From: Microcoleus sp.
Lineage (GTDB): Bacteria; Cyanobacteriota; Cyanobacteriia; Cyanobacteriales; Microcoleaceae
Assembly: GCA_042408215.1 (NCBI GenBank)
Contig: JAYFMW010000030.1
Location: 32,001 to 96,000, forward strand
Direction: 5' to 3'
DNA: 64,000 nt
Shown: piece after piece, positions 16,646 through 53,591 of the stretch
How the letters are laid out: the number at the start of each line of letters is the position of its first letter
Numbering within the stretch: the stretch's first letter is position 1
Program-made: the position numbers and the translations under genes
Notes under the pieces: model-generated
Seen by the model: the letters and a program-made list of their open reading frames with translations, nothing else
The model's database searches: none
Told to the model about the DNA's origin: nothing

Positions 16646-16684
16646 TAGAATACATTCATTGCAGAACATTGGTCAAAAATAATA

Positions 16685-17338
16685 ATGTCGCTGATTTATT
16701 TAAGGATTAATGGGGATGACGAATCAAAGCAAGGAGACACAAGACTCCATGACGCAATTGCCACGGGCGATTTGTCACGAATACAAAAATTTATTGAACA
16801 GGGGATTGATGTCAATCAATTAAACTATAAAGAGGGTTTTACCCCCCTAACACAAGCAGTTTTTTTGGGTCATTTAGAAATTTTAAAAGTTCTTATTGAA
16901 GCAGGGGCAAATTTAAGGCAATTCGACAATACACCTTCCACACCATTATGCTTAGCTGCTGAACTAGGTAATATAGAAGCGGTACGACTATTACTGGGGG
17001 CAGGAGCTAATGTCGATCTTGGAGGTTTAGAAAGTCCATTAGGGTGTGCTGTAAATTACGGTCATATAGATATTGCCAATATATTAATTAGCGCAGGTGC
17101 TAAGCTGAATTCAACAGATGAAAGTGGCATAACTCCTTTAATGCTTGCAGCGATATCAGGGCGTCTTGATTTGGCGCAACTTTTGGTTGAAGCTGGTGCA
17201 GATGTAAATGCAGTTGATGAGTATAAAAATACAGCTTTAAGGAAAGCTTCCGAAACCGGACACCAGGATGTGTTCAACTACTTATATCCCTTAACAGATG
17301 ACAAATTTCCCTATATTGATGAAGAAATTCCCTTTTAA
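16685..17338 (+). CDS. Ankyrin-repeat protein, putative immunity to the orphan tip
   Basis: GFTPL, TPLCLAA and GITPLMLAA...GADVN ankyrin repeats; follows the toxin. Confidence 0.88.
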   Translation: MSLIYLRINGDDESKQGDTRLHDAIATGDLSRIQKFIEQGIDVNQLNYKEGFTPLTQAVFLGHLEILKVLIEAGANLRQFDNTPSTPLCLAAELGNIEAVRLLLGAGANVDLGGLESPLGCAVNYGHIDIANILISAGAKLNSTDESGITPLMLAAISGRLDLAQLLVEAGADVNAVDEYKNTALRKASETGHQDVFNYLYPLTDDKFPYIDEEIPF

Positions 17339-17462
17339 CCTAATTAGTAATTTCTCTCTTTTAGAGGCTGTTAGAAGTAACAATGTGCAAAAAGTACGCG
17401 CGGAGATTGCTAATACGAATCAAATCGGAGCATTATTTTTAATGCTTTAGACTCGGACTCGG

Positions 17463-20400: not shown

Positions 20401-22494
20401 TAGATTACACTTACGATTCGGTTGGCAACCGCTTGACTAAGAATGATTCGGTGGCGGGGTTGGCTAATTATTCTTACGATGGCAATAACCGCCTGCAACA
20501 GCTAACTCAGGGTTCTCAAACTACTGCTTTCAATTACGATGATAACGGTTCGATAATACGGCGTTCTGACGGCACGCAAACTGTTACTTACGACTGGTTT
20601 AATGACGGCGAAAACCGCTTGGCGGGAGTTACTAATTCTGGTTCTGGAGGAATTTCTCAAACTGATTTTGTTTACGATGCTTTCGGCAATCGGGTAGCCA
20701 GCATTGATAACGGCGTCAGAACGAATTATTTGACTGCTTCAACTGGCGGTTTGCCGTCCGTTTTGATGGAGTACGATGCGGCGGGTCAAGTTACTGCCGA
20801 TTACACTCACGGACTCGGTTTGGTTTCTGCCACTCGCAACGGCCGGGAGGGATTCTACCACACCGACGGCATCGGTTCGACGCGGGCGATTACTGATAAT
20901 GTTGGTTTAGTAACTGACCGCTACACTTACGATGCGTTCGGCGGGTTGTTGAACCAAACGGGGACTTTCGGTAATTCATTCCAATTTGCCGGGGAACAGC
21001 GGGACGGTTCTACCGGATTGGATTATTTGCGGGCGCGGTATTACGACCCGAGTTTGGGGCGGTTCATCTCGAAAGATGCGTTTGCTGGCTCTTTAAGCGA
21101 CCCGATGAGCCAGCACGATTACCAGTACGCGCACGCGAATCCGGTGCGGTTTACAGACCCGACAGGCTACTTCTCGATGGGCGATCTGATGGCGACGCTG
21201 AGTGGGGTGTCGGCGCTGGCCGCGATCGGTGGGGTTAGTTTCGGTACGGGTTATATCGGTGGTGCTGTTGCTGGTGGGGCTAGCGGTGAGGAAGTTTTAG
21301 GAATGTTTGGAGAATGGGGTGCTGGTTTTGCCAACGGTGTATCGAGTGGTTATTTAACTGATGTTTATGAATACTCTACTGGGAATAAGATTGAACCGAA
21401 TCATGCGATGCTGTACAGTGCTGGGAATGTGGCTGGGATTGGGGTGTCTTTTCTGACTGGGATGAAGGCTGCTACTTGGGCTACTACTGCGATGGGGCCT
21501 TTGAAGTGGGTAGGTGTTGGGCTGGGTGCGGTAGATACGGGATTCGATGGTTATGGGGCGGCGACTGCTACTAATAATCTTAATCAGAGTTACCAGAATA
21601 ATGGTAAGTTTGAGGTTGAGGATGCTTGGAATCTGAGTGCTTATGTGCCTTTTGGTGTGGCGGCGATTAAGGGTGTTAAGGGTTTATTGGGTGTTGATAA
21701 TGCCCTTAAGAACAGTGCTGACAGTGCGGTAACAAAGGCTGGGAGTTGTTTTGTTGCTGGTACGGAGATTCTCACTGTTGACGGTATCAAGAATATTGAG
21801 GATATTCAAGTTGGAGATTGGGTAATTGCTGACGATCCTACTACTCCGGGGGGGATTGAGGCGAAGGAGGTTTTGGATACGTTTGATAATGAGGTAACTG
21901 AGCTGTTACGATCTTTATGTGGATGGGGAGGTGATTTCTACTACTGGTGAGCATCCTTTCTGGGTGCCGAATTTGGGATGGGTAAAAGCGAAGGATTTGG
22001 TTGTTGGATCGTTGTTACAGACGGATAAGGAGACGTTTGTTGATGTCGATAAGATAGAGCGGCGCGAGGGGAATTTCAAGGTTTACAATTTTGAGGTTGA
22101 GGGGTTCCCGACTTACTTTGTCTCGGAGTTGGGGATTCTGGTTCATAATTCATGCTATGACCCGGACAATCCAAACAGAATAGACTCAAGCACATTAAAT
22201 ATTAATGACTTGATTCAAGCATCTGGGGAACCTATTGGTAAAGGTGGTTTAACAAAAGCAGGCCGTGCATTAGATAAACACGCAGCAGGTCAGAGAGGAA
22301 GTTCTCCTTTTCCACCTTTAACAGGTAATAACGCGAACAAAAACTTAATAGCTGAACAACAAGTAAATGAGATACTCAATCATCCTGATGCTGTTTTTAT
22401 TAGACTTGGAAGAGGGGGAATTGAAGCTAGAGTTCCTGATGGACGTGGAATAAGGTTTGAAGCAGATGGTAGTTTTAGTACATTTGTAGATTAA
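17463..22494 (+). pseudogene. RHS3: 5'-truncated RHS barrel, Gly/Ala-rich linker, pretoxin Hint domain and GRALDKH-type toxin; one frameshift
   Basis: Homology to the other RHS genes begins near 17463 (TVEDANLVRNKNGYYG). DPTG is at 21156-21167 and the Hint domain runs from CFVAGT (21747) to LVHN (22149). An extra T at 21906-21907 splits ORFs 17583-21950 and 21919-22494. Confidence 0.86.
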
Positions 22495-22504
22495 GAGGGT
22501 CAAA

Positions 22505-22756
22505 ATGGCTATAAATCTAGATTCCGGTTTTGAAATCCTTTATCTTAGTGACATAAAATATGATGAAATGACTGTTGAAATACAATATAAGGGACAACAG
22601 GTCGCACAAATAAATAAAGATAAAGGTGTCGATCGAATGGAAATAGATATATACTCTGAATATGTTACTCCAGATTTTGTGTCAGAACTGAAATTCCCAC
22701 TGAGTGACTTTTTAGAAGCAATAAATGTAGCTAGTAAAGCTTTAAAAGATGCTTAA
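22505..22756 (+). CDS. Small acidic putative immunity protein
   Basis: Starts 10 nt after the toxin stop with a GAGGG RBS; paralog of 23357-23599. Confidence 0.8.
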   Translation: MAINLDSGFEILYLSDIKYDEMTVEIQYKGQQVAQINKDKGVDRMEIDIYSEYVTPDFVSELKFPLSDFLEAINVASKALKDA

Positions 22757-22785: not shown

Positions 22786-23347
22786 ATTCTACCGGGGGAA
22801 CATCCTTTCACCGACGCCCGATCGCGGTAGGGTTGAAGCGAAGGATTTAACTGTCGGGTCGTTGTTGCAAACTGATGAGGAGACGTTTGTTGATGTCGAT
22901 AAAATAGAGCGGCGCGAGGGGAATTTCAAGGTTTACAACTTTGAGGTTGAAGGGTTCCCGACTTACTTTGTCTCTGAGTTGGGGGTGCTGGTTCATAACT
23001 CATGCTACGACCCATCTCATCCAAACAGAATAGATCCAACCACACTAGATTTAAAGGAGCTGGTTAATGCCGCAAATGAACCTTTGGGTAAAGGTGGCTT
23101 AACTAAGGGTGGTCGAGCATTAGATAAGCACGCAACAGGTCAGAGAGGAGTTTCTCCTTTCCCACCTTTAACCGGGAATAACGGTAATAAAAATCTAATT
23201 GCTCAACAACAAGTTGATGAGATTCTATATCATCCTGACGTTGTTTTTGTTGGGATTGGAAACAAGGGTGCTGTTGAAGCTAGAATTCCTGATGGACGTG
23301 GAATAAGATTTAACGGTGATGGTAGTTTGGCGGGATTTGTAGATTAG
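22786..23347 (+). pseudogene. Orphan Hint-tip module: degenerate C-terminal half of Hint plus a paralogous GRALDKH toxin
   Basis: Decayed TGEHPF..VEAKDL at about 22786-22860, then ORF 22862-23347 with LVHN/SCYD and a tip similar to 22150-22494. Confidence 0.82.
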
Positions 23348-23718: not shown

Positions 23719-24426
23719 ATGGCACCAAAAATAACCATCCAAGAATTAGCTTTAGCCCTAACTGCCAAAAACCACTCTCCCACCCTCCTTAACTCGGATT
23801 TCCTCAAATACAGCGGCATCGTCCCTGCCGACTGGGAACTCGCCCGCCCTCCCGTTTTCAGTCCCCAAATCTCTCAAGCCGCCTTCACCAACGGCATCAA
23901 CATCGTCGCCCAATCGAACGCCATCACTTTCATCGAATCCCTGAGCACAAAATCACAAGAAGACGTAAAAATTCCCGACATTATTCGGAAGTACGTTGAA
24001 GCTTTGCCCCGCACCGACTATCAAACATTGAGCATCAATCCTAGAAGTTTTATCACCTTTGAAGCAGGCGATGAAAATGCAGCCCGCGAGTTTATCACGT
24101 CCACTTTACTCGCAAAAGGCACTTGGTCTGATGTGGGGAAAGCTCCTGTCAAAGCTGCTGTCAATTTAGTTTACTCTTTAGAACAAGGAGAACTTAACTT
24201 GAGCGTTGCCGAAGCATTGCTGCAACTGCAAGACGCCGAGCCAACTCCCGCAGTATTGTTTTCCGGCAGCTTTCAGTACGAAATTGCAGGGGAATTAGAA
24301 GGCGAGAAACTGCAACACTTGTACAAGCTTTTGGAAAATTGGCAGCCCGATTTAGAAGCTTACAGGGAAATCGTCAACGTGCGGTTTTTGGGGAAAGAAG
24401 TTGAAAAGTTGCCGTCTGCCGCGTAA
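23719..24426 (+). CDS. Conserved 235-aa hypothetical protein, RHS-block-terminal (copy 1)
   Basis: Clean ORF with near-identical copies at 35724 and 45026. Confidence 0.88.
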   Translation: MAPKITIQELALALTAKNHSPTLLNSDFLKYSGIVPADWELARPPVFSPQISQAAFTNGINIVAQSNAITFIESLSTKSQEDVKIPDIIRKYVEALPRTDYQTLSINPRSFITFEAGDENAAREFITSTLLAKGTWSDVGKAPVKAAVNLVYSLEQGELNLSVAEALLQLQDAEPTPAVLFSGSFQYEIAGELEGEKLQHLYKLLENWQPDLEAYREIVNVRFLGKEVEKLPSAA

Positions 24427-24491: not shown

Positions 24492-27400
24492 TTGTATCCC
24501 GTGAAGCTGGAAGCATCAGACGGGCGCGGTGGCAAGGATATCCAAGAATACAGCATTCGGGTGTGGCCCGACCCGACCAACAGCAACCCGGTTATCGTCA
24601 GCGACCCCATAGTCCGCTTCGGACTGGACGATAAAATTTACCGCTATCAGTTGAAAGCGGTTGACCCCGACGGCGACCGACTCAAATACCGCTTGGTTGA
24701 CGGTCCCCTGGGGGCATTGATTGACGGCGATAGCGGAGAATTGCTGTGGTTCCCAGAAAATGTTTTACCCGGAAGTAAGGCTGACTTTACTGTGGAGGTG
24801 GCAGACCCGCGCGGTGGTAAGGGCTTGCAAACTTTCCGCGTCGATGCTTACGGTGCTTTGGGTAAAATTCAGGGAGCCGTATTTGACGATTTAAACGGCA
24901 ACGGTTTCCGCGATTCTAAATTAGTTAAAGGTAACAATCCGGCGATCGTGATGGCGATCGATGTTTCTGGCAGCACGGCTGCTCCGTTTGATGGCCCGGC
25001 TGGAGTAGATAACGTTCTCAAGGCTCAAGTCGCCGCCACCCTAACTCTCATCGATACATTAATAGCTCAAGGTTTGGGAGATAGAGTCAATATCGGCTTG
25101 ATTCCCCATCAATACACCGCCCAAATTCAAGATATGGACCCCGCAACGCCGGGAGTTCAGTTCTACACGACGCCCAACGCAGATAAAAACAACAACGGCA
25201 TCCCCGATATTCGGGAAATTCTGGCAAGCAGCACTTACACTGTGCCCAACGGTCACAATGACTTTACCAAAGCCGTACAGGCGATCGACCTTCTTGTTCC
25301 TTTGATGCCGGGAGATAAGAATGTTATCTTCATGTCCGACGGCTACGGTGCTCTAGATGCCACTGTTGCAGCTCTCGTGGGGGCCGACCTCAAAACTAAA
25401 GGCATCGGCTTGACAGCCTTCGGAATCGGCAAATATTCGACCCTGGATACCATCAAAAAACTCGACCCCGATGCGGTGATTTTGAGCGATATCGACCAGT
25501 TAAGCAGCGTTTTCGGCGGTTTTGACCCCCGCTACACTCTAGAGCCTTTAATGGAAAACGTGCCGGTCTATCTGGATATTAACAACAACGGCATACTAGA
25601 CCCCAACGAACCGAAGCAGTTGACCAAAAAGGACGATTCTGAGTCGAATCTGGGCAAAACCAACTATCAGTTTACTTTTGACAACTTAGTGCCCGGTACT
25701 TACAAAGTGCGAACTGTAGCGCCCAGCGGCTACACGCAGACAGCACCTAGTACCTCGGTTTTCACGGATACCGTGACAACTGCGGGGCAAACTTTTACTC
25801 ACTTGTTCGGCGTGCATAAAGGTTCGCAAGAGCGGCCTAACTCCGACCCCACTTTTTTGACGGCTGCGCCAACAACGAAGTTGAAAGCTGGGGAATCCCT
25901 AGTTTACAGGGCTTTGGCTTCTGACCCGGATGCCGACGAGGTAACATACGGTTTGGTTCTGAACCCGACTGGAATGAGCGTAGACCCGAAGAACGGTACT
26001 GTAGTTTGGACTCCGACGGCTACTCAGGTTGAGGAATATTATAAAGAGCTACGGGCGACGCGCGATCGTTTGATTGCTTTCGGTCGAAGGGAGGCGGCAC
26101 CCTCTACGGTGAAGTTCAATGTCGTCCTGCGGGCATCTGACGGGAAAGGCGGTCAAGCTTTGCAGTACGTCGAGGTGGAACTGATACCGCCCAACAATCC
26201 TCCCGTCTTTACATCTGCTGCGCCATCCAAAGAGCAACCTCAAGCGGGTAAGCGCTTCGAGTATCGCGCGGTAGCGGAGGATGCTGACGGCGATAATATT
26301 GTTTATACGATTTTACCCGGTGCACCGATTGGTGCCGCAATTAACGCGACTACCGGACTGGTAACTTGGACGCCGACAGCGGGACAGTTGGGAACGAATT
26401 CATTCACCGTCAAAGCCACTGACAGTAAGGGCTCAGAAGCCAAGTTAGAAGTGCCGCTGCGGGTAATTGAAGCGATTCCCAACCGCCCTCCTGACATTAC
26501 ATCCAGCCCCCGCACAGTAGCCCGCACCGGCAACGGGTACTTCTACAAACTCGCTGCCACCGACCCCGACGGCAATCCCATCACCTTTACTTTAGTTTCT
26601 AAGCCAATTGGAATGACTGTTGATGCGGAGGGTTTAGTGTCTTGGATTCCAACAGCTTCGCAAACCGGCCCCATCGCAGTGTCGGTGTTGGCTAACGACG
26701 GCTTTGGGGGAAGCGACACTCAATCCTGGACTGTTAATGTCTCTAATTCGGCCGTTAACCGACCTCCAAGTATTACTTCGACACCGGATACGGTTACTAA
26801 TTTGGAACGAGTTTATCGCTACCAGTTAACAGCTACCGACCCCGAAGGAGACTATTTGCTGTGGAGTTTGGATAATGCTCCCAAGGGTATGGTAATCGAT
26901 GCTAAAACAGGCAGTCTTAGCTGGCAGCCAACTCCCGAACAAATTGGGGAACAGACTATTGCAGTGCGAGTGACTGATGCTAAGGGTTCTTATGTGGGTC
27001 AGGAATTCAGTTTAAAGGTAACAGGAATTAACACGCCACCTGCAATTGTTTCGGTTCCAGTCACAGTCGCCGGAATCAATCAAACCTACAAATATCAAGT
27101 AATCGGAACCGACCCGGAAAACGATGCCCTGCGTTATAGTTTGGGAACCAAACCAGAAGGCATGAAGATTGACCAAAAGACTGGTTTGATTGAATGGACT
27201 CCGGCTACTAATGCTGTAGGTTCTCTTGAAGTAGAGGTTTTAGCAACAGATACCCAGGGGGCGGTGGGGAATCAGAGATTTGCAGTATCTGTGGGCACTA
27301 CTGCTATCAATCAGCCTCCAACTGTAGTTTCCAGCCCCGTATTTGCAGCATCTTTAGGGAGTGCGTACACCTATACAGTACAAGCGACTGACCCGGATGG

Positions 27401-30400
27401 TAACGCTTTAACTTATCAATTATTGAAAGCACCAATGGGGATGGCAATTAATCCGACAACTGGATTGCTAACTTGGGCTAATCCGACTGCTGGAAATCAT
27501 CAAATAGTAGTCGGTGCTATAGATACTGGCGGTTTGGGGGCAGCCCAAGGTTTCACATTAACTGCGAGGGCAAATTCTGCGCCAGTTATTCCTACCGTAC
27601 CTGCTCAGCAATCTGTTGCGATGGGTGCTACTTATCGTTACGATTTAAAGGCAACTGATGTTGAGGGAGATTTGCTTTCTTATTCTCTGTTGCAATCTCC
27701 AAATGGCATGACTGTTGATGAATTTGGGCGGATTAGTTGGGTTCCTAAATCGAATGATGTCGGTACGACTAAACCGGTACAAATTGCGATTACCGATACG
27801 TTTGGCAAGACTGTTACTGTTTCCTACAATTTAAGCGTTGTTGCCGATACTGTCGCACCGAAAGTCAATCTAATTGCAAGCTCGAATGCGGCTAATGTTG
27901 GGGAGTCGGTTACGTTTACAGTCAATGCTGTCGATAACGTGAAAGTGGAATCTTTGGGTTTGACGATTAACGGCACTCCGGTTGTCATAGATGCACAAGG
28001 CAAGGCAACTGTCAAGTTAAATAACTTAACTCCCATCACGGCAATTGCCACAGCTAAAGATGCGGCTGGAAATGTGGGGAATGCGACTCAAGTTGTCAGG
28101 GCAATTGATACTAGCGATGTCAACGCGCCAATTATCAACATCAGTTTAGAAGATGATGTTGATGTTTCTGCACCTCTGGTAATTCGAGGTACGATAACTG
28201 ACAGCAATTTGGATTACTATACTTTGTCAGTAGCCCCGGTTGGTAGCAGTCAATTTAAGGAAGTTTATCGGGGAACGAATGCTGTCAATAATGAAGTAAT
28301 TGCGACATTTGACCCGACTGTTTTGGCTAACGGGGCTTACGTTCTCAAATTCACTGCTTTCGATACCAACGGTAACGGTTCGACTACTGAAAGAACGGTG
28401 AATGTTGCGGGCGATTTGAAGTTGGGGAATTTCCGGTTGTCGTTTACTGATTTGACGGTTCCGGTGGCGGGTATTCCGATTAACGTGACTCGGACTTACG
28501 ATTCTTTGAATGCGAATTCCAGCGATGATTTCGGTTACGGCTGGCGGATGGAATTCCGGGATACTGATTTGAAGACTTCGTTAAAAGCTGACCCGACTTA
28601 CGAGGAGTTGGGGATAAATACTGTACCGTTTGACAGCAAGACTAAGGTGTTTATTACGTTACCTGGTGGTAAGCGGGAAACCTTTACTTTTAAGCCGACT
28701 CCGCATCATCTGAATCAGTATTTAGGAGGGGCTGGGCCGGGGGCTCAGATGTTCAAACCTGCTTTTGAGTCTCAGAAAGGTTCGACGGTGACTCTGACGG
28801 TTAAGGATGCGAATTTGATACGGAATGAGAACGGGTATTATGGGGTGAACGGGCAGCCTTTCAATCCCGAAAATCCGGCGTTTGGTAGTGTTTATGTGTT
28901 GACGACTCTTGAGGGATTGGTTTACGAGATTGATGCGAAGTCTGGGGATTTGCTGACTGCGACAGATGCGAATGGGAATAAGCTATCTTTTAGCGATGCG
29001 GGGATTAAGAGTAGTACGGGTAAGTCGGTGACTTTTGAGAGGGATTTTGCTGGGAGGATTGTCGGTGTTGTTGACCCGGATGGGAAGAAGGTTAAGTACG
29101 AATACGATGCGAAAGGGGATTTGGTTGCTGTTAAGGATAGGGAGAATAATACTACGACTTTTAAGTATGAAGATGAAGACAGACCGCACTTTTTAACTGA
29201 GGTTATCGATTCGTTGGGACGCAGTGGAGTTAAGACTGAATACGACGATTCCGGCCGCCTCAAGCAGATGGTGGATGCGAATGGTTCGGCGGTGGAGTTG
29301 GTTTACGACCCGAATAATTCGATTCAGAAGGTTAAGGATGTTTTCGGTAAGGAAACTACTTACGTTTACGACAGTCGCGGGAATATTTTAACTGAAATCG
29401 ACCCGTTAGGGAAGCGGATTGACAGGACTTACGATGCGGATAACAACGTTCTGACTGAAACCGATGGCGATGGAGTTACAACTAAATTTACCTACGACAA
29501 TCGCAGAAACCTCCTGACAATTGAAGATGAAGGCGACAACATCACTCGCATGACCTACGACAACCAAGGTCGCGCCACTTCAATCGTCTCGCCGACAGGT
29601 CTGAAAACCTCAGCTAAATACGACAGCCGCGGTAACTTAATTGAAAGCGTTGACACCGACAATCTAAAAACAACTTACACCTACAACGCGCGCGGTCAAC
29701 TGCTAACTCAAACCGCACCCGACGGTCAAGTTAATAAGTTTGAATACGACGATGCAGGTAACATCAAACGCACGATTGACAGTCGCGGGAATCAGGTTGA
29801 TTTTGATTACAATTCCAACAGCAGAATTGAAGTTGCTACAACTACATTTACCCTCAACGGTCAAACCCATACTTTGAAGATGGAATACGACTACGATAGC
29901 GAGGGTCGAATCGTTGCTAGCAGAACCAGTCAGGGTAACAACCAATCGGTAATTTACGATGCCTTGGGACGGGTAAAATCGGCAACTGACGTATTCGGCA
30001 ACGTCACGACTTACCGCTACGATTTGCCGCTATCCCCTGGAGAAAACACCACTTTAATTGCAGGCGCAGGGCGGGCAGTTACTCGCATCGACGAAGTTAC
30101 TTTGCCCGACAACACGCCAACCAACAGCACCGACAATCCGAAAGTAATTAACAAGTACGATGCCGCCAACAATCTCATCGCCCAAATCTCTCCCACCGGA
30201 CTAGAAACCCGCTACGTTTACGATGCTTTGAACCGACGGACAGAGACAATCATACCCGATAAAACTCCCCTCGATTGGACTGACAATCTCAGGACGAAAA
30301 CCGAATACTCCGACGGCAATCGAATTAAGTCGCAAACCGATATCTGGGGCAACAAAACCCAATATTTTTACAACGATATCGGTCAAATCGTGCGAGTTTT

Positions 30401-33400
30401 AGATGTTTTCAACAAGCCGACAACCTACACCTATAACGCAGGCGGTCAAGTCGAAACAATTATCGATTACCGCAACCGTAAAACTCAATACGTTTACGAT
30501 GACAAAGCGCGAGTTAAGGAAGTTATTTCCTTTGATAATTCCCGATTTAAATTAACCTACGATGAATTGGGTCGGCTCAAAACTGAAACCAACGAACTGA
30601 ATCAAACCACCACCTACGAATACGATGCCAAAAGTCAAGTCAAAGCGGTTATTAACGCCCTAAACGAACGCACTGAATTTGAATACGACAAGCGTCGCAA
30701 TTTAGTTCGAGTTACCGATGCACTCTTACAATCGACTAGCTTCAAATACGACGAATACGGGCAGCAAGTAGAAACGATTTTCCAAAACGGCGACAAAGTT
30801 GCGATGGGTTACGACCGATTCGGCCGCCTCACCAGTGCCAGAGATGAAAATCTCAACCAGACCAAATACACCTACGACAATCTCAGCCAACTCACTAAAA
30901 TAGAACAGCCCAAGCAGTTAGTTAACGGTCAGTTGGAAGATACTTTCACTGAGTATACTTACGACAATCTATCTCGCTTGAAACAGGTCGAGGATGCTAA
31001 CAAAAACGTCACCGCTTTTGAGTACGATGAATTCTCCCGCCCGAAAGCAACTGTTTTGCCACTGGGTCAAAGAAACCTCACCGCTTACAACAAGTTCGGG
31101 CAAGTTAAATCTGCTACTGATTTCAACGGTGATACGATTAATTACAGTTACGATCCGTTTGGGCGTTTGGATGGCAAAACTTTTACCGATCCGAACATTC
31201 CTGCTGTTTCTTATGCCTACGACCCGGTAACAACTAATCTGGCAACTGTTACGGACGGGCGCGGGGTGACTGGCTACGGTTACGACAATTACGACAGGTT
31301 GCAAACCATTACGACGCCAGACCAAAAAGTCGTTCAATACGGCTACGATTTGTTGGACAACATTACTTCTTTGGTAACGCCAACGGGAACGACAACTTAC
31401 GGTTACGATTCGTTGAATCGCTTGGATACTGTTTCTAAAGGCACTCGGGTTCTGGCGGATTACGATTACAACAAAGTTGGCAATCTCTCTGAAATTAAGT
31501 TGGCTGACAGTTCTGTAGAGTCACGCAAATACGATTCTCGCAACCGCTTGGAACAAATCACTACCAAAAATTCTACGGGGACGGTGTTCAGCGATTTCAA
31601 ATACACTCTGGATGGGGTTGGGAACCGCAAGAAAGTTGAAGAGTACGGCGGCCGCACTGTCGATTACATTTACGACCCCCTCAACCGATTGACTCAAGAA
31701 AAGATGGCGGGCGGTGTTACTGGAAATCGCACGGTTGATTACACTTACGATTTGGCGGGAAATCGCTTGACTCGCAACGATTCGGCGGCGGGATTGGCGT
31801 CTTATTCCTACGATAAAAACAACCGCTTGCAACAGTTAACTCAAAAAAGTCAAACAACTTTGTTTGGTTACGACAGTAACGGTTCGCTGAAACAGCAATC
31901 TGACGGTACTCAAACTGTTAACTACGATTGGATTAATGATGGGGAAAATCGTTTGAAGCGAGTGACTGATTCGGGAGCAGGAGGGACTTCTCAAACTGAT
32001 TTTGTTTACGATGCTTTTGGCAATCGGGTTGCTAGTATTGCTGGCGGTGTCAGGACTAATTATTTGACTGCTTCGACTGGCGGTTTGCCGAATGTTTTGA
32101 TGGAGTACGGGGCGAACGGTCAAGTTACTGCGGATTACACTTACGGACTTGGTTTGGTTTCTGCGACTCGTAACGGTCGGGAGGGATTCTACCATACTGA
32201 TGCTATCGGTTCGACGCGATCTATTACTGATGGTGTTGGTTTGGTTACTGACCGCTATACTTACGATGCTTTTGGCGGGTTGTTGAATCAAACTGGAACT
32301 TTTGGCAATTCTTTCCAGTTTGCGGGGGAACAGCGGGATGGTTCTACTGGTTTGGATTATATGCGGGCGAGGTATTACGACTCTGATTTGGGGCGGTTTA
32401 TCTCGAAGGACGCTTTCAGTGGCTTTTTAAGCGACCCTTACAGCCAACACGATTACCAGTACGCCCACGCAAATCCGGTGCGGTTTACTGACCCGACTGG
32501 TTACTTCACAATGGGTGATGTGATGGGGACGCTGAGTGCAGTGGGGGCGCTAGCTGCGATTGGCGGGGTTGGTTTTGGTGGTGCTTATATCGCTGGGGCT
32601 GCTGCTGGTGGGGCTAGCGGTGAGGAAATTCTGGGGATGTTCGGGGATTGGGGTGCGGGGTTTGCTGGCGGGGTGTCGGGCGGTTTTCTGACTGATGTTT
32701 ACGAGGGTTACAGCGGTAACAAGTTTGAACCGACTAACGGGATGCTGTGGGGTGCGGGGAACGTGACTGGAATTGGGGTGTCGTTCCTGTTGGGGATGAA
32801 GTTGCCGATGGTGGCGGCTACTAAGGTGGGTCCGCTGAAGTGGGCTGCTGCTGCGGGGATGGCGGCTCAAACTGGGCTTGATGTTTACGGTGCGGCGCAG
32901 GCGACTGGGAATCTTTACAACAGCTACCAGGATAACGGTGCGTGGGAGGTGCAGGATGCTTGGAATTTGCTGGCTTACGTGCCGTTTGTGGGGATGACGC
33001 TTGGGGTGACTAAGGGGCTTAGCGCTGCGAGGAAGGTCAAGGGCGGCACGCCTGGGGCTGATGATTTGTTGAAGAATGGTCCTGGAACGACTGAAACTTC
33101 GGTGATTGGCGCGTGCTTCGTTGCTGGTACGGAGATTTTGACGACAGATGGGATTAAGAGTATTGAGGATATTCAAGTTGGGGATTGGGTGATTGCTGAT
33201 GACCCTACTACTCCGGGGGGGATTGAGGCGAAAGAGGTTTTGGAGACGTTTGTCAGGGAAACTGATGCGCTGGTTGATTTGTATGTGGATGGGGAGGTAA
33301 TTTCTACTACTGGGGAGCATCCTTTCTGGGTAGCGGATAAGGGATGGGTTGAGGCGAAGGATTTAGTTGTTGGGAGTTTGTTGCAGACTGGGGATGGTAG

Positions 33401-33881
33401 GATTGTTGATGTCGATAAAGTTGAGAAGCGGGAAGGTAAGTTTCCGGTTTATAATTTTAAGGTTGAGGGGATTCCGACTTACTTTGTTTCGGAGTTGGGG
33501 ATTCTGGTTCATAATGCAAATTGCATTTCTTTCGATGACCTGATTCCAGAACTGTCGAATCGTCCGCTTTCTTATGAACTAAAACATCTAAAGAAACATT
33601 TGCCTGGTACGCCTCAATCTGACAAATTAATACGTAAAGACGGATCTGCTCATTTATTCAACGATTTGGAAACTTTGAGTAGAGTCGAAGCTGAAATTCT
33701 GAAACGCGGTCAATATACGGGGACTGTACGTGACGCAGAGCGCTATGGCTTAAGATTTGATGAGCCAATTGGATATAGAATTGGAAAAGATGGAAATACT
33801 ACTCCATTAAACTATGGAGAATTAAAAGTCGATCCTGATGGTCAATATCATGTGATTCCAAGAACAGGTCCCTCAAAATGA
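24492..33881 (+). CDS. RHS4: 3129-aa Ig/SdrD-B/vWA/DUF6531-like/RHS protein with pretoxin Hint and an Ntox50-like tip; probably 5'-truncated
   Basis: Uninterrupted ORF with a TTG start in mid Ig repeat. vWA MIDAS motif DVSGS (24960) and FMSDG. Hint from CFVAG (33114) to VHN (33515). Tip HLKKHLPG...IGY...YHVIP. Confidence 0.9.
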   Translation: MYPVKLEASDGRGGKDIQEYSIRVWPDPTNSNPVIVSDPIVRFGLDDKIYRYQLKAVDPDGDRLKYRLVDGPLGALIDGDSGELLWFPENVLPGSKADFTVEVADPRGGKGLQTFRVDAYGALGKIQGAVFDDLNGNGFRDSKLVKGNNPAIVMAIDVSGSTAAPFDGPAGVDNVLKAQVAATLTLIDTLIAQGLGDRVNIGLIPHQYTAQIQDMDPATPGVQFYTTPNADKNNNGIPDIREILASSTYTVPNGHNDFTKAVQAIDLLVPLMPGDKNVIFMSDGYGALDATVAALVGADLKTKGIGLTAFGIGKYSTLDTIKKLDPDAVILSDIDQLSSVFGGFDPRYTLEPLMENVPVYLDINNNGILDPNEPKQLTKKDDSESNLGKTNYQFTFDNLVPGTYKVRTVAPSGYTQTAPSTSVFTDTVTTAGQTFTHLFGVHKGSQERPNSDPTFLTAAPTTKLKAGESLVYRALASDPDADEVTYGLVLNPTGMSVDPKNGTVVWTPTATQVEEYYKELRATRDRLIAFGRREAAPSTVKFNVVLRASDGKGGQALQYVEVELIPPNNPPVFTSAAPSKEQPQAGKRFEYRAVAEDADGDNIVYTILPGAPIGAAINATTGLVTWTPTAGQLGTNSFTVKATDSKGSEAKLEVPLRVIEAIPNRPPDITSSPRTVARTGNGYFYKLAATDPDGNPITFTLVSKPIGMTVDAEGLVSWIPTASQTGPIAVSVLANDGFGGSDTQSWTVNVSNSAVNRPPSITSTPDTVTNLERVYRYQLTATDPEGDYLLWSLDNAPKGMVIDAKTGSLSWQPTPEQIGEQTIAVRVTDAKGSYVGQEFSLKVTGINTPPAIVSVPVTVAGINQTYKYQVIGTDPENDALRYSLGTKPEGMKIDQKTGLIEWTPATNAVGSLEVEVLATDTQGAVGNQRFAVSVGTTAINQPPTVVSSPVFAASLGSAYTYTVQATDPDGNALTYQLLKAPMGMAINPTTGLLTWANPTAGNHQIVVGAIDTGGLGAAQGFTLTARANSAPVIPTVPAQQSVAMGATYRYDLKATDVEGDLLSYSLLQSPNGMTVDEFGRISWVPKSNDVGTTKPVQIAITDTFGKTVTVSYNLSVVADTVAPKVNLIASSNAANVGESVTFTVNAVDNVKVESLGLTINGTPVVIDAQGKATVKLNNLTPITAIATAKDAAGNVGNATQVVRAIDTSDVNAPIINISLEDDVDVSAPLVIRGTITDSNLDYYTLSVAPVGSSQFKEVYRGTNAVNNEVIATFDPTVLANGAYVLKFTAFDTNGNGSTTERTVNVAGDLKLGNFRLSFTDLTVPVAGIPINVTRTYDSLNANSSDDFGYGWRMEFRDTDLKTSLKADPTYEELGINTVPFDSKTKVFITLPGGKRETFTFKPTPHHLNQYLGGAGPGAQMFKPAFESQKGSTVTLTVKDANLIRNENGYYGVNGQPFNPENPAFGSVYVLTTLEGLVYEIDAKSGDLLTATDANGNKLSFSDAGIKSSTGKSVTFERDFAGRIVGVVDPDGKKVKYEYDAKGDLVAVKDRENNTTTFKYEDEDRPHFLTEVIDSLGRSGVKTEYDDSGRLKQMVDANGSAVELVYDPNNSIQKVKDVFGKETTYVYDSRGNILTEIDPLGKRIDRTYDADNNVLTETDGDGVTTKFTYDNRRNLLTIEDEGDNITRMTYDNQGRATSIVSPTGLKTSAKYDSRGNLIESVDTDNLKTTYTYNARGQLLTQTAPDGQVNKFEYDDAGNIKRTIDSRGNQVDFDYNSNSRIEVATTTFTLNGQTHTLKMEYDYDSEGRIVASRTSQGNNQSVIYDALGRVKSATDVFGNVTTYRYDLPLSPGENTTLIAGAGRAVTRIDEVTLPDNTPTNSTDNPKVINKYDAANNLIAQISPTGLETRYVYDALNRRTETIIPDKTPLDWTDNLRTKTEYSDGNRIKSQTDIWGNKTQYFYNDIGQIVRVLDVFNKPTTYTYNAGGQVETIIDYRNRKTQYVYDDKARVKEVISFDNSRFKLTYDELGRLKTETNELNQTTTYEYDAKSQVKAVINALNERTEFEYDKRRNLVRVTDALLQSTSFKYDEYGQQVETIFQNGDKVAMGYDRFGRLTSARDENLNQTKYTYDNLSQLTKIEQPKQLVNGQLEDTFTEYTYDNLSRLKQVEDANKNVTAFEYDEFSRPKATVLPLGQRNLTAYNKFGQVKSATDFNGDTINYSYDPFGRLDGKTFTDPNIPAVSYAYDPVTTNLATVTDGRGVTGYGYDNYDRLQTITTPDQKVVQYGYDLLDNITSLVTPTGTTTYGYDSLNRLDTVSKGTRVLADYDYNKVGNLSEIKLADSSVESRKYDSRNRLEQITTKNSTGTVFSDFKYTLDGVGNRKKVEEYGGRTVDYIYDPLNRLTQEKMAGGVTGNRTVDYTYDLAGNRLTRNDSAAGLASYSYDKNNRLQQLTQKSQTTLFGYDSNGSLKQQSDGTQTVNYDWINDGENRLKRVTDSGAGGTSQTDFVYDAFGNRVASIAGGVRTNYLTASTGGLPNVLMEYGANGQVTADYTYGLGLVSATRNGREGFYHTDAIGSTRSITDGVGLVTDRYTYDAFGGLLNQTGTFGNSFQFAGEQRDGSTGLDYMRARYYDSDLGRFISKDAFSGFLSDPYSQHDYQYAHANPVRFTDPTGYFTMGDVMGTLSAVGALAAIGGVGFGGAYIAGAAAGGASGEEILGMFGDWGAGFAGGVSGGFLTDVYEGYSGNKFEPTNGMLWGAGNVTGIGVSFLLGMKLPMVAATKVGPLKWAAAAGMAAQTGLDVYGAAQATGNLYNSYQDNGAWEVQDAWNLLAYVPFVGMTLGVTKGLSAARKVKGGTPGADDLLKNGPGTTETSVIGACFVAGTEILTTDGIKSIEDIQVGDWVIADDPTTPGGIEAKEVLETFVRETDALVDLYVDGEVISTTGEHPFWVADKGWVEAKDLVVGSLLQTGDGRIVDVDKVEKREGKFPVYNFKVEGIPTYFVSELGILVHNANCISFDDLIPELSNRPLSYELKHLKKHLPGTPQSDKLIRKDGSAHLFNDLETLSRVEAEILKRGQYTGTVRDAERYGLRFDEPIGYRIGKDGNTTPLNYGELKVDPDGQYHVIPRTGPSK

Positions 33882-34096
33882 TTCAAGAATGGTATGAAGT
33901 ATGGGTTGATGAATCAACCAAAGTTCCTTATGTTTTGTTTCTTTGCCCCGATCAAAACAATTCAGGAGGAATATTAATTATTGACCCAAAACAAAACAAT
34001 CAAATAATCCAGAAGCTACCTGACTATAATACAGCAGTTTTGTGGTTAACTGAGGATGAGTATACTCGTGTTGAGGGCAGAATGGAGATTGAATAA
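33878..34096 (+). CDS. 72-aa putative immunity protein
   Basis: ATGA overlap with the RHS4 stop suggests translational coupling; small and acidic. Confidence 0.8.
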   Translation: MIQEWYEVWVDESTKVPYVLFLCPDQNNSGGILIIDPKQNNQIIQKLPDYNTAVLWLTEDEYTRVEGRMEIE

Positions 34097-34181
34097 AATT
34101 AACGCCTAATGATAGTAAAATCTCCGTCTGATGTTGCTCAACAAAGTCTACGATTTGACTTTAACCCTAATAATATAGTAG

Positions 34182-35002
34182 GGAGATTCTGACTGTTGAT
34201 GGGATTAAGAATATTGAGGATATTCGAGTTGGGGATTGGGTGATTGCTGATGACCCGACTACTCCTGGGGGGATTGAAGCGAAGCAGGTTTTGGAGACGT
34301 TTATCAGGGAAACTGATGCGTTGTACGATCTGTATGTAGATGGGGAGGTGATTTCGGCTACTGGGGAACATCCTTTCTGGACGCCGGATTTAGGTTGGGT
34401 TGAAGCGAAGGATTTAACTGTTGGGTCATTGTTGCAAACCGCTGATGGTCGGGTTGTTGATGTCGATCGAGTTGAGAGGAGGGAAGGGAAATTTGAGGTT
34501 TATAATTTTAATGTTGAGGGATTCCATACCTACTATGTCTCGGATTTAGGGATTCTAGTTCATAATGCAGAATATCCTAGGGATGCTATAGAAATACAAA
34601 GAAACCTTCCGAGGGATATAGGTGACAAGGCTGTTGCTACAGATGGAGATATCACAACTCTCAGTGGATATGCCCCCCCATTTGAAACCACCTGGATTCG
34701 ATCATGTTCCTGCTACTGATGTTATGCAACGAGCCGAAGAGATTGGACATATTTTTCCAAATCAGGGTGGCTTCGATCGCGGAACTCCAGGTTTATCAAA
34801 AGCAAGTCATGCAGAAGTTCAACTAATAGTTGGTAAGCCAAATGCAAATAATATTCAAATTGCCCCCAAAGCTATGTGTAAGAGCTGTCATGATTTCTTT
34901 CAGAAAGAAGCAAGACATCAGGGCAGACCTATAACAGTTATAGATGCCACCGGTCGAGTAACGTTTAACGGAGATGGAACTGTCACTCCCCCCAGATATT
35001 GA
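34182..35002 (+). pseudogene. Orphan Hint-tip module encoding an SsdA-like zinc-dependent cytidine deaminase; frameshifted at a C7 tract
   Basis: Hint from EILTVDG (about 34182) to VHN (34566). ORFs 34240-34719 and 34622-35002 join if C7 (34673-34679) is C6. Motifs TLSG..KPPG..EEIGH..SHAEVQ..MCKSC..F..DG.V. Confidence 0.8.
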
Positions 35003-35014
35003 GGAATATTAACT

Positions 35015-35620
35015 ATGAATGCATTACCTGAAGCTATTCAACAGATTCTAGAAGATTGTCGCTCTAGCATTACTGAAAGAGGTGAATTGCCAGCTAAAAA
35101 TCGTGAAAATTTATACAAAAAACTTGATAAGTTTCTTCCAAATAACCCCAAATATGTTGCTCATTATTGGAGAGCTAAGCTAGAGCTAAATTGTGCGCTA
35201 AAAGTCCTACATAAATGGGAATCATGTGAATTAGCTGATAGCTCTGCTCGCCAGTTATTATCTGACGCAGAGCGATATTTAGTGGGAGAATTAGAAAGCG
35301 AGGTCTTAAGAAGTAGAAAAAGTCTTTTGTACAGTCAAACAGAAAATTTAATGGATAATGGTCTAGAATATTTTGTAGCTGCTTATGCTGGATTTGCTTG
35401 TGTTTCAGCAGTTAATGCAGCGTTATACGATCTTAAGTTTAAGACTCTGGGACTCCCAGAAATAGAAACTGAGCCTGATTTTTGGACAGCTTGCTTTCTT
35501 GCTTCTCTAGCATACTGTGGAGGCGCAACATGGGAAGAGGGAGTCGGAGATGATTTGAAGAGAAGAGAATTTTGGGAGTGGTTTCTCAATGAGGCAGTAC
35601 CTGCTTTATGGAAAATTTAA
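35015..35620 (+). CDS. Imm5-like immunity protein
   Basis: C-terminal KRREFWEWFLNEAVP motif typical of the Imm5 family; follows the deaminase tip. Confidence 0.75.
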   Translation: MNALPEAIQQILEDCRSSITERGELPAKNRENLYKKLDKFLPNNPKYVAHYWRAKLELNCALKVLHKWESCELADSSARQLLSDAERYLVGELESEVLRSRKSLLYSQTENLMDNGLEYFVAAYAGFACVSAVNAALYDLKFKTLGLPEIETEPDFWTACFLASLAYCGGATWEEGVGDDLKRREFWEWFLNEAVPALWKI

Positions 35621-35723
35621 GACTTACTCTTCCTTAGCTAATCTTTTAACTCACAAAAACTTTACCCGTACAAGAGCCAATTCACAAGCATAAAATACAA
35701 ATAACACCCCCACACAAACAACC

Positions 35724-36350
35724 ATGACACCTAAAGTAACCATCCAAGAACTGGCGATCGCCCTAACTGCCAAAAACCACTCCCCCACGCTCCTCAACGC
35801 AGACTTCCTCAAATACAGCGGCATCGTTCCACCTGACTGGGAACTCGCCCGCCCCCCCATTTTCAGTCCCCAGATATCTCAAATCGCCTTCACCAACGGC
35901 ATCAACATCGTCGCCCAATCGAACGCCATCACCTTCATCGAATCCCTGAGTGCAAAGTCACAAGAAGACGTAAAAATTCCCGACATTATCCGCAAGTACG
36001 TTGAAGCGCTACCCCGCACCGACTATCAAGCTTTAAGCATCAATCCCAGAAGCTTCATCACCTTTGAAGCAGGAGACGATAATGCTGCCCGCGAGTTCAT
36101 CACCTCCACTTTACTCTCGAAAGGCACTTGGTCTGATGTGGGGAAAGCTCCCGTAAAAGCTGCTGTCAATTTAGTGTACTCTCTCGAACAAGGAGAACTT
36201 AACTTGAGCGTAGCCGAAGCTTTGTTGCAACTGCAAGATGCCGAGCCAACTCCCGCAGTATTGTTTTCTGGTAGTTTCCAGTACGAATTAGCCGGGGAAT
36301 TAGAAGGCGAGAAACTGCAACACTTGTACAAGCTGTATTTGACGATTTAA
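35724..36350 (+). pseudogene. 235-aa conserved gene, copy 2, 3'-truncated and fused to RHS5 DNA
   Basis: Matches copy 1 up to ...QHLYKL (36334), then switches to GTATTTGACGATTTAAACGGC, the sequence found at 24879 in RHS4. Confidence 0.88.
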
Positions 36351-45025: not shown

Positions 45026-45733
45026 ATGACACCTACAGTAACCATCCAAGAACTAGCCTTAGCCCTAACAGCCAAAAACCACTCTCCCACGCTCCTCAAC
45101 TCGGACTTCCTCAAATACAGCGACATCGTCCCCCCCGACTGGGAACTCGCCCGCCCCCCCATTTTCAGCCCCCAAATCTCTCAAATAGCCTTCACCAACG
45201 GCATCAATATCGTCGCCCAATCGAACGCCATCACTTTCATCGAATCCCTGAGTACAAAGTCACAAGAAGATGTAAAAATTCCCGACATTATCCGCAAATA
45301 CGTTGAAGCGCTACCCCGCACCGACTATCAAAATTTGAGCATCAATCCGAGAAGTTTTGTCACCTTTGAAGGGGGAGATGAAAATGCGGCCCGCGAGTTC
45401 ATCACCTCCACTTTACTCTCGAAAGGCACTTGGTCTGATGTGGGGAAAGCTCCCGTCAAAGCTGCGGTTAATTTAGTTTACTCTCTGGAACAAGGAGAAC
45501 TTAACTTGAGCTTTGCCGAAGCATTGCTGCAACTTCAAGATGCAGAACCGACTCCGGCTGTCTTGTTTTCGGGAAGCTTCCAGTACGAAATTGCAGGAGA
45601 ATTAGAAGGAGAAAAACTGCAACATTTGTACAAGCTTTTGGAAAATTGGCAGCCGGATTTAGAAGCTTACCGGGAAATTGTCAACGTGCGGTTTTTGGGG
45701 AAAGAAGTTGAACAGTTACCGTCTGCCGCGTAA
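45026..45733 (+). CDS. Conserved 235-aa hypothetical protein (copy 3)
   Basis: Near-identical to 23719-24426; last gene of the array. Confidence 0.88.
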   Translation: MTPTVTIQELALALTAKNHSPTLLNSDFLKYSDIVPPDWELARPPIFSPQISQIAFTNGINIVAQSNAITFIESLSTKSQEDVKIPDIIRKYVEALPRTDYQNLSINPRSFVTFEGGDENAAREFITSTLLSKGTWSDVGKAPVKAAVNLVYSLEQGELNLSFAEALLQLQDAEPTPAVLFSGSFQYEIAGELEGEKLQHLYKLLENWQPDLEAYREIVNVRFLGKEVEQLPSAA

Positions 45734-47286: not shown

Positions 47287-48543
47287 CTAAAGTCTGATTC
47301 TCGCTACGGTGGCCAAACACCGTCTACCCAGTCGGTTAAGTTTTACACCTAGCTTACTGGCTACTTTTCTAAGAATATTAGCCGACCCATTTAGGTCTGC
47401 ATTGATTACAATCCCATTAGCAGAACGATATAATCCACGCTTGATTCGTTTTCCAGATGCTTTCCACTCAGGCGGTTTTTCACCGTATCTGGGTAGGGAG
47501 TCTCCATCAAGAAAACTACTCTTTGATGTATAGGCTTCTTCTGTTTCGGTAAACTTAATGCCGTGTAGATTGCAAAGCTGCTTTAAGCGTTCTTTCAACT
47601 TTCCTAGAGGCATTTGAACAAACTTTTGATTATTCAGTTTGCCCATGTCAACATTGGATTTAAAACCTTGATTCCATCCAATTACTAGATTGCCGATACC
47701 ATGCTTTAAACAGTGGTCAACGATTAACTTTGCAGCTTTGTTGACACCATCACGCATTTGGTGATTGCGTTGACGGGTTACACGGTCTAACCAACTATCC
47801 CAATAACCTGCGGGTTTTCCTTCCTTTCTAGTTGCTACTTTCTTGTTCCATAACTGATTCATCGCCTTCATAGCGCGAGCATCAATCAAGAAAGAATTTC
47901 CTAGCGTATCAACGCAAGCTCCTAAATTGTCAGCAGTTCCCAAATCGATTGATAAAGCTTGGCTGCGATCTAAATCGTGCTGCTGCAATTCTACTTCGTA
48001 AGACATTTCCAAGTAGAAAGCACCATTCTTAGGAAGGATTGTAAATTCTTTAACCTTTGAATAGTCAATATTTGACGGCATGGGCAGAAAGAATTCAGAA
48101 ATCCCAAACCAGCGCCTAACTGTCAAACCCAAAGAAAATCTTAACTGGTTGCCGACAAGTGCTGGCTTTAATCCTCCAGAATTTGGGTAAGCAACTTTGA
48201 ACAAGTTAGAGCCTTTTAAATACCCCGGAGGTTTAGGTCTAAAATGCAATTGACCTTCATTGTATAAAGCTTTTAGCTCTTTGAAGCTCTTAAACGCTTC
48301 CGTGACCGACATCAAAGTTTGCTGCATGGGTGTTGAAGGCAACGACTTCGCAACCATCGACTTTGCGATTGACGGTTCAAAGGATAAATCGAACTTCCCT
48401 GTGAGCAACTTTCCAGTTTTGAAAAATGTTTGTCGAGCAAAATAGACAGCGCTATTGTAGAGCTTTCCCGATTGCCGACAAAGATAGTGCAATACTGCCT
48501 CAACTTCTTTGGTGGGAGACAGTAATACTTGCTGCACTCCCAT
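47287..48543 (-). CDS. tnpB: TnpB RNA-guided nuclease-like protein, lacking a zinc finger
   Basis: KLYNSAVY, PKPPGY, SIDLG (RuvC-I), VIGWN, EEAYTS and NADLNGSANI (RuvC-III). The start may be slightly upstream. Confidence 0.9.
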   Translation of the reverse strand: MGVQQVLLSPTKEVEAVLHYLCRQSGKLYNSAVYFARQTFFKTGKLLTGKFDLSFEPSIAKSMVAKSLPSTPMQQTLMSVTEAFKSFKELKALYNEGQLHFRPKPPGYLKGSNLFKVAYPNSGGLKPALVGNQLRFSLGLTVRRWFGISEFFLPMPSNIDYSKVKEFTILPKNGAFYLEMSYEVELQQHDLDRSQALSIDLGTADNLGACVDTLGNSFLIDARAMKAMNQLWNKKVATRKEGKPAGYWDSWLDRVTRQRNHQMRDGVNKAAKLIVDHCLKHGIGNLVIGWNQGFKSNVDMGKLNNQKFVQMPLGKLKERLKQLCNLHGIKFTETEEAYTSKSSFLDGDSLPRYGEKPPEWKASGKRIKRGLYRSANGIVINADLNGSANILRKVASKLGVKLNRLGRRCLATVARIRL

Positions 48544-48679
48544 TGTTTTTTTTAATTTAGCCACCTCTTTTTCCTGAAAATTAGTGGATTTGTTTAGTTT
48601 AGGTGAGTATAGTGGACGAGTCAAGCCACAACAACAAAACTTTATGTTACCTCTTCCAGAATATCAAACCCATAACCAC

Positions 48680-48827
48680 GTCAAACTTTCCAGAATTAAA
48701 AAAGTTGCCGTCTTTGTGGACGAGCGGCTATTTTGTTAGTACCGCAGGCAATATTAGTAGTGAAGCTGTTAAGAGATACACAGAAGATTCACATCGCTCT
48801 GTAAATCAAGAAAGACACGGGGATTGA
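48680..48827 (+). pseudogene. tnpA: C-terminal fragment of IS200-type Y1 transposase
   Basis: FPELKKLPSLWTSGYFVSTAGNISSEAVKRY is the TnpA C-terminal motif; the HUH-bearing N-terminus is absent. Confidence 0.82.
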
Positions 48828-48894
48828 AATCCTCGCGTCGCTTTCCACGAGCGGGCTAAAGCCGCGCTCGTTTCCCGCTTCCCGTATTGTTTTT

Positions 48895-49209
48895 ATGAAA
48901 AAGCCGCATACTTTGACAGATAGAGAACGCAATTTGATTGCAATTTACAGCCAATGCCAATTGGGAATGACGCCGAAACAGTTTTATGTCAAGTGGGGGG
49001 TAAGTTACGAGCAAATTGCCTCCATTTGTTCCCGCTCTGATTCGACGGTACAGGGTTGGTTTAAACGCGGAAAAAATCGAAGATTTCCTACTGCTGTTGA
49101 TTTGCGCCATTTGGCAGTAATGGATTTTCTGCTGGAACACTTTGAGGAGATTCCCGACGTACTGGCGAACTTGCTGTGTCCGCATTCCGAAGATAAGAAG
49201 GTGCGTTAG
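48895..49209 (+). CDS. Small helix-turn-helix protein
   Basis: VSYEQIASICSRSDSTVQGWF looks like an HTH. Confidence 0.75.
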   Translation: MKKPHTLTDRERNLIAIYSQCQLGMTPKQFYVKWGVSYEQIASICSRSDSTVQGWFKRGKNRRFPTAVDLRHLAVMDFLLEHFEEIPDVLANLLCPHSEDKKVR

Positions 49210-49352
49210 AAAAGAATTTGAGCGGTTGAAATCACAAACCTAATTAATTGTCAAGGTCAGCGTGACCTGTCTTGAAGAATATTCTCTCAACTAGCGTAAT
49301 GGCAAGCAAGGAAAAAAGAACGCAACCTATTACTGTCGCTGGTGAGGTTAAA

Positions 49353-51683: not shown

Positions 51684-51753
51684 CGACGCAGCTCTATGTG
51701 AAATCGAATTAATCGATATAGCTGCGGTAGATTAATATATCCGCTTTCGGGCG

Positions 51754-51798
51754 AATTACCCCAGCTACAGCTCCTACTGATAGCTGGGGTAATTTTTT
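51754..51798 (+). terminator. Intrinsic terminator-like hairpin
   Basis: AATTACCCCAGCTA and TAGCTGGGGTAATT form 14-bp arms followed by a T run. Confidence 0.7.
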
Positions 51799-52140
51799 AT
51801 CTACTGGGGGCTGTTAACTGGAGTGATAGATGCTCAAAACCGGGTTTGTTAAACTCTACTAACTAGAGCTTGTTATTAAAGTTTTAATTGACGCTCCAGA
51901 GCCATCGCATTTTGTATCGATTTCTCTAATTATATGAGTAATAATCCTAAAGTTGATAGCTGTGCGCTCCTAGGGCTGACTGATACCAGTATAGTTGGCG
52001 ATTGCAACTGAGTCTCCCCTCTAACAACAGCTAAGTCATTTCCGGCAATGCAAGAAGCAAGAACCATTGCTTGAGAAACACTCTAAGTTAAAAGCTACCC
52101 CCTAGCGGGAGAAGTTAAGAGCTCACCACTTCTTACCGTT

Positions 52141-53382: not shown

Positions 53383-53591
53383 GTGGGAAGTAGCAAGCAT
53401 TTCGTAGGGTGTGGACGGTTCTTTTTTGCTGGGACAAAACACAGAAAAATTTCCTATTTGTCTTAAAAGTTTTATTAACAAGACTTAGGAATCTTCCTTG
53501 CCCGGAATCTAAAAAACCTACTCTTGAAAGACTCCCCCGTCAAGCTAACGCTTAATCAGAGGTTGAGAAAATTAGTAATGGACGCTAACTA

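Follow-up and report, generated by a model that had tools for sequence, protein, structure and literature searches.

We found that a 64,000-nt stretch of DNA from Microcoleus sp. (GCA_042408215.1, contig JAYFMW010000030.1, 32,001-96,000; hereafter the window, whose own coordinates are used throughout) carries an SsdA-like DNA cytidine deaminase domain together with an Imm5 immunity gene. The reading that we favor, and consider probable as a whole, is that these form an orphan HINT-deaminase-Imm5 cassette of an Rhs array, that the extra C splitting the deaminase is an assembly error, and that the cassette is a silent spare tip that would be armed by recombination. The domain order and family matches are observed directly, and the reading frame is continuous in contigs from sequencing runs and in two relatives. 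Both the toxin family and the orphan arrangement are already known; what is added here is a cyanobacterial branch of the family and its setting.

Architecture of the locus

Rhs trunks, toxin tips and small downstream genes form an array that fills the first 45 kb of the window. Pfam matches and the list of open reading frames (ORFs) place its main polymorphic toxin gene at 24492..33881 (plus strand, as are the parts between 33127 and 35620 described below), encoding a 3129-aa protein with Ig-like repeats, Rhs repeats, a PT-HINT domain and a DUF6972 tip. The tip (1.4e-41) lies within 32982-34096, and its position suggests from sequence that DUF6972 is a polymorphic toxin domain. A 72-aa ORF (33878..34096) overlaps the main toxin stop codon; from its position alone it may be the immunity gene for the DUF6972 tip, and a family search with it gave no credible match.

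Behind this gene lies a second PT-HINT (34174..34566) that is 5'-truncated, follows in-frame stops at 34168-34173 and ends in His-Asn; the Cys motif at the N-terminus of the main HINT is missing from it. The overlapping ORF, 34240-34719, matches PT-HINT in Pfam (4.8e-17). The deaminase domain (34567..35002) comes next, split in the assembly at 34673-34679, followed by an intact Imm5/SsdAI-like immunity gene (35015..35620) with a GAGGA ribosome-binding-like motif upstream.

The initial annotation had joined two ORFs at a C7 run into an SsdA-like toxin with an Imm5-like gene downstream, and these assignments hold under database search. ORF 34622-35002 matches the Pfam family SsdA_C (PF24120, 2.5e-9, 38 bits against a cut-off of 27), and the frame after the tract matches the SsdA chains 7JTU_A (E 5.9e-10) and 9C63_A in the PDB. 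When the two frames are read through with an X at the break, the SsdA alignment extends to the upstream TLSG motif (E 4.4e-12; 49 versus 42.7 bits), although the 50-residue piece upstream of the break, searched alone, gave no SsdA match. The downstream gene, ORF 35015-35620, matches Imm5 (PF14423, 4.3e-27) and the SsdAI chain 7JTU_B (E 4.3e-7). NCBIfam offered no name for the toxin piece or for Imm5. A profile search of the source genome returned this locus as its sole SsdA_C match. The locus had also been described as hidden from automated annotation by the split; the product is indeed split, yet the 92-aa piece on record already carries a precomputed PF24120 match.

Fold, family motifs and substrate-contacting residues

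All of the motifs previously listed occur in the order in which they occur in SsdA. Alignment to SsdA places a Ser-Gly-Tyr motif of the SGW type (34663..34671) in the HINT frame just 5' of the C7 run (34673..34679), a His-Ala-Glu that supplies a zinc ligand and the catalytic Glu (34808..34816; SsdA H346 and E348), and the Cys-x-x-Cys zinc ligands (34877..34888; SsdA C367 and C370). In SsdA numbering, the window protein keeps K289, S300, G301, R336, H346, E348, C367 and C370. The four zinc-site residues (H, E, C, C) are conserved in 143-147 of about 149 homologues; the third position of the Ser-Gly motif is aromatic in 116 of 139 homologues and Tyr in 13 of them.

SsdA of Pseudomonas syringae and its immunity protein SsdAI (PDB 7JTU, 9C63, 9C64; PMC7901873, PMC12494967) are the closest characterized system. 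BaDTF2, the family to which SsdA belongs, is described as defined by an SGW motif, the absence of DYW features and a link to antagonism systems (PMC7901873). The window pair agrees with SsdA-SsdAI in the order of its motifs, in the zinc ligands and catalytic Glu, in having an SG-aromatic motif, and in the PF24120 and PF14423 families; it likewise has no C-terminal DYW, and the ORF ends soon after the terminal hairpin. The adjacent Imm5 gene and the HINT/Rhs context supply the immunity gene and the link to interbacterial toxins. An AlphaFold model of the intact orthologue from the same genus, rather than of the window's split protein, has a pLDDT of 96.6 and superimposes on SsdA (9C63/7JTU) with a TM score of 0.88 and an rmsd of 1.3 A, compared with TM scores of 0.36-0.52 against DYW and BaDTF3 chains. 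The window domain is thus modeled, through its orthologue, as having the SsdA fold. Its Imm5 is of the SsdAI family and keeps an acidic residue, Pro, an acidic residue and an aromatic at SsdAI D150, P151, E152 and F154, which are reported as DNA-mimic positions (PMC12494967).

The two systems also differ. SsdA is a PAAR-bearing T6SS effector, whereas the window tip is an orphan on an Rhs-HINT platform; HINT processing is described as not found together with T6SS delivery (PMC3482391). About a third of residues are identical, the SGW of SsdA is SGY in the window, and the turn that holds isoAsp294 in SsdA is longer by one residue in the window. Among the SsdA substrate contacts named in PMC12494967, the positions of T290, H332, Y342 and F343 are Ala, Gly, Ser and Lys in the window protein, and that of Y334 is Phe. 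According to the same paper, SsdA tolerates Phe in place of Y334 but loses all or nearly all activity when H332, Y342 or F343 is changed to alanine.

Several SsdA DNA-contact residues are therefore missing from this branch, and its substrate preference may differ as a result. In the strong form of this idea, which we regard as unlikely, the domain is intact but is not an SsdA-like single-stranded DNA (ssDNA) deaminase: it would be weak, or shifted to double-stranded DNA (dsDNA), RNA or a narrower sequence context, through loss of the aromatic platform that bends DNA. All four substitutions also occur in the closest relative, P0003, and so do not reflect recent decay of the window copy, and the same-genus orthologue similarly lacks an aromatic at both 334 and 342. 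SsdA-like enzymes are, moreover, reported to vary, some deaminating dsDNA almost fully (10.1101/2023.06.29.547047). Among homologues, 110 of 148 have an aromatic at 342 and 89 of 133 have Thr at 290. However, the family is variable at H332, Y334 and F343 (2 of 138 homologues have His at 332 and 24 of 143 an aromatic at 334), so the loss of these residues says little. Retention of every catalytic residue and of the SG-aromatic motif, and purifying selection on both genes, also argue against a shifted substrate. This alternative is compatible with the assembly-error and orphan parts of our preferred explanation.

Relatives of the deaminase-Imm5 pair

Among 1.84 billion cluster representatives, 183 matched at E <= 0.001, and the best 150 of these were used. 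The closest among these is P0003, an 825-aa protein 80% identical to the window over the matched part. P0003 is an Rhs-HINT-SsdA_C protein in one frame, uninterrupted across the tract site, and its trunk shares 79.5% identity with the main Rhs of the window; the protein is encoded on a 2.7-kb contig and lacks the last hairpin, so it may be cut short. Elsewhere, then, the tip sits on the same kind of Rhs-HINT trunk. Other searches returned less: the split ORF found just the window's own 92-aa product among two candidates, the HINT-containing read-through returned mostly HINT domains, and a search for related loci gave weak short matches, at two loci in metagenomes and four in genomes, which were left aside.

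Of 78 further genomes in the genus, one (G042) encodes an unbroken orphan HINT-deaminase with Imm5, the first of several HINT-tip and small-gene cassettes behind one giant Rhs gene. Its deaminase is 65% identical to the window's domain, and the protein has exactly the sequence of WP_051041627.1 from Oscillatoria nigro-viridis PCC 7112 (we treat the two as a single occurrence), which bears out the earlier placement of such a toxin in cyanobacteria. WP_051041627.1 is encoded on plasmid pOSC7112.01 (NC_019763.1) and is annotated as a HINT-domain protein with no deaminase label. Together with WP_015211700.1 it represents the same HINT-deaminase-Imm5 cassette in the same kind of locus, with 75.6% DNA identity over 90% of the stretch; unlike in the window, the frame is unbroken and the start of the HINT is complete. 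Among 400 other genomes drawn from the phylum, one further, weak SsdA_C-plus-Imm5 pair was found. This pair (L025 668-1923, genome G361) consists of a divergent, stand-alone SsdA_C-like gene (weak, 1.7e-4) and a strong Imm5; it comes from a different taxonomic family within the same order, and no HINT or Rhs was seen within the locus.

The window protein, P0003 and the G042 orthologue form one clade in our tree (support 0.97). Both toxin and immunity gene are under purifying selection: between the window and G042, dN/dS is 0.35 for the toxin and 0.27 for Imm5. Within the toxin it is 0.24 for the 102 codons after the tract and 0.94 for the 35 before it, the latter being a small sample.

The reading frame across the C tract

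The run of seven C's at 34673-34679 was confirmed in the assembly, where it arises from adjoining Ala, Pro and His codons. The initial annotation had left open whether the tract was a phase switch or an error. Parts of the window are present, in every case as contigs, in 19 sequencing runs, and we compared four of the 19, from three studies, over the tract. None of the 19 is recorded as RNA, which says nothing about expression. In all four, a single contig, at the full depth shown there, crosses 34673 without one base, giving six C's and one tract length throughout, with the proviso that contigs drop rare variants. Run X1, a possible source of the assembly, has no other difference over 34497-35700, and run X2, from a different study, has none over 34100-34769. 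The X4 contig has a depth of 3.5 over the tract, and X9 is a more distant strain with 55 differences; with X1 set aside, X2, X4 and X9 still span three studies. Once the tract is corrected the frame is continuous, as had been proposed, and it is unbroken in the run contigs, the G042 orphan and P0003. We conclude that the extra C is very probably an assembly error, on which reading the frameshift has no biological meaning.

As a control, we compared runs X1, X2, X3 and X5 over 10000-22600, where Rhs ORFs break four times. The single-base breaks at 12534, 13576 and 21905 are each bridged by contigs with one base left out, in three, two and two of the four runs, respectively, the contigs at 21905 possibly deriving from paralogous HINT copies. 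The Rhs ORFs of 10326-14713 and 17583-22494 are thus likely to be continuous frames in nature. The remaining break, at about 10350-10371, is a 16-bp near-duplication that puts ORFs 8318-10384 and 10326-12566 out of frame with each other; the run comparison yielded no entry for it. The split deaminase is a caution that breaks of one base in this assembly should be verified in reads. Compared with G042 (120 kb, at least 80% identity), 3 of 89 genes of the source genome have a net insertion that breaks the frame, whereas no gene has a net deletion of this kind, and at a stricter 88% identity 2 of 42 genes compared carry a +1; at either threshold, such counts cannot tell errors from true mutations.

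It is very improbable, by comparison, that the extra C is a real mutation of this strain by which the orphan tip decayed to a pseudogene, at no cost while Imm5 was kept. With the SG motif encoded on one side of the tract and the zinc site on the other, a true seven-C allele would presumably be inactive. Degeneration has precedents nearby: the orphan HINT already lacks the N-terminal Cys motif that the G042 orphan retains, and a second degenerate HINT piece lies at 22787-22998. The runs are also not proven to be the same strain as the assembly, X1 contigs showing 10-31 differences from the window in four Rhs stretches. Nevertheless, a real mutation would require four separate +1 events in one array, all missing from the sampled populations, even from contigs otherwise identical across the tract, and the breaks found genome-wide were likewise all insertions.

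An orphan cassette and its probable role as a spare tip

The setting of the deaminase, which the initial annotation did not describe, is that of an orphan HINT-toxin cassette, truncated at its 5' end and without its own delivery trunk. As it stands, the window copy is therefore unlikely to be deployed as a toxin. For rhs-CT/rhsI and cdiA-CT/cdiI, such orphan modules have been described, as has the way in which recombination arms them (PMC3150448, PMC3967940). The window shares with these, and with the cassettes of PMC3482391, a 5'-truncated, trunkless toxin fragment located downstream of a full-length gene and followed by a linked immunity gene; further common features are shared DNA upstream of the tip and, as in P0003, occurrence of the tip on a full trunk in another organism. 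The shared DNA lies in the HINT-coding stretch of the main gene at 33127..33518, the predicted recombination target, which aligns with the orphan HINT DNA over 393 nt at 84% identity and contains perfect matches of up to 30 nt. Differences from the known systems are that the shared stretch is HINT-coding rather than Rhs core, and that the host is a cyanobacterium in which recombination is predicted. Imm5 has been listed as paired with DYW-type deaminases, in a table row that does not include cyanobacteria (PMC3482391). An X2 contig links the upstream HINT region to the orphan, indicating that the arrangement is real rather than an assembly artefact. No junction placing the deaminase tip on the main trunk was found among the contigs of the four runs compared, a form of data that drops rare forms.

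Together these features suggest a model in which the cassette is a silent spare tip and expression, recombination in this lineage, export and deaminase activity are inferred steps. If the two HINT-coding stretches crossed over, the main toxin gene, the likely recipient trunk, would exchange its DUF6972 tip for the deaminase. After export, self-cleavage of the HINT at His-Asn would free a deaminase of about 145 aa, which in a rival cell would likely convert cytosine to uracil in ssDNA, killing or mutating that cell. Since the cassette has no delivery trunk, Imm5 is likely the part working now, by analogy protecting the cell against neighbors that deploy this tip.

A different use of the orphan, which we consider very improbable, is that it is translated alone from an internal start and forms an intracellular type II toxin-antitoxin pair with Imm5. 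Possible starts are present, such as a GTG at 34240 with a G-rich stretch upstream, and such a role has been reported for a Salmonella orphan rhs (PMC7043789). Against this, promoter-like sites occur at chance level (5 found, 5.3 expected), and the truncated HINT would be unable to self-cleave through a first Cys.

We rejected a phase-variable on/off switch acting through slipped-strand mispairing as scarcely credible: two tract lengths are on record, seven C's in the assembly and six in the run contigs, one of them in frame, but no contig of the four runs compared has seven C's (all lack the base), short C runs are common (831 C7/G7 and 2,515 C6/G6 runs in the source genome), the G042 orphan has at most three consecutive C's at the site, with a one-base gap in the DNA alignment, rather than the long, conserved tract expected of a switch, and switching would presumably bring little gain to an orphan lacking a trunk.

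Other toxin tips and flanking genes

The array contains further tips. The Rhs gene at 4-7605 ends in a second, unrelated deaminase, of the BURPS668_1122 family (PF14424, 4.6e-20), with weak matches to AID-like PDB entries (E 0.03). This tip is intact and on a trunk, and is followed by a SUKH immunity gene (7730-8221); its zinc segment has Asp-Ser-Glu where His-x-Glu is usual, together with Pro-Cys-x-x-Cys. The stretch 13559-17338 holds two Rhs-core tips that are related to each other but belong to no known family. An ankyrin-repeat gene follows each of them, and these are probably toxin-immunity pairs.

A gene of about 235 aa occurs in triplicate (23719-24426, 35724-36350 and 45026-45733; about 89% DNA identity). 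Each copy closes a block of toxin cassettes, the middle one being cut short where the next Rhs repeat begins, and a copy also closes the G042 array (C2 152622-153350). The gene has no Pfam or NCBIfam match.

Beyond the array, 47287-60490 encodes an IS605/TnpB element, a group II intron-type reverse transcriptase, a RecD-like helicase and extra-looking dnaN, dnaX and holA genes. On plasmid NC_019763.1, too, the array is flanked by a dnaN-dnaX-holA set, suggesting that the region is plasmid-derived or an integrated element.

Discussion

SsdA belongs to a well-studied family with solved structures that has been engineered into base editors, and SsdA-like homologues have been screened in bulk (175 enzymes; 10.1101/2023.06.29.547047). 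A literature search, chiefly of freely available papers and of the main text of that screen, found no paper on the cyanobacterial branch or on WP_051041627; a member of the branch may already have been assayed. To the deaminase family being mined for base editors, our analysis adds a rare cyanobacterial branch, present in 1 of 78 other genomes from the genus and, as a weak match, in 1 of 400 drawn from the phylum, and an intact, unlabelled natural orthologue, WP_051041627.1, is available for direct assay.

We speculate, while considering it unlikely, that the cyanobacterial BaDTF2 branch, lacking the Tyr342 platform that bends ssDNA, may edit another substrate (dsDNA or RNA) or sequence context. 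If so, base editing or footprinting would gain a compact deaminase that nature has already retuned and that mat-forming cyanobacteria swap on HINT cassettes. More broadly, our findings suggest that cyanobacterial Rhs-HINT arrays trade DNA-mutating tips.
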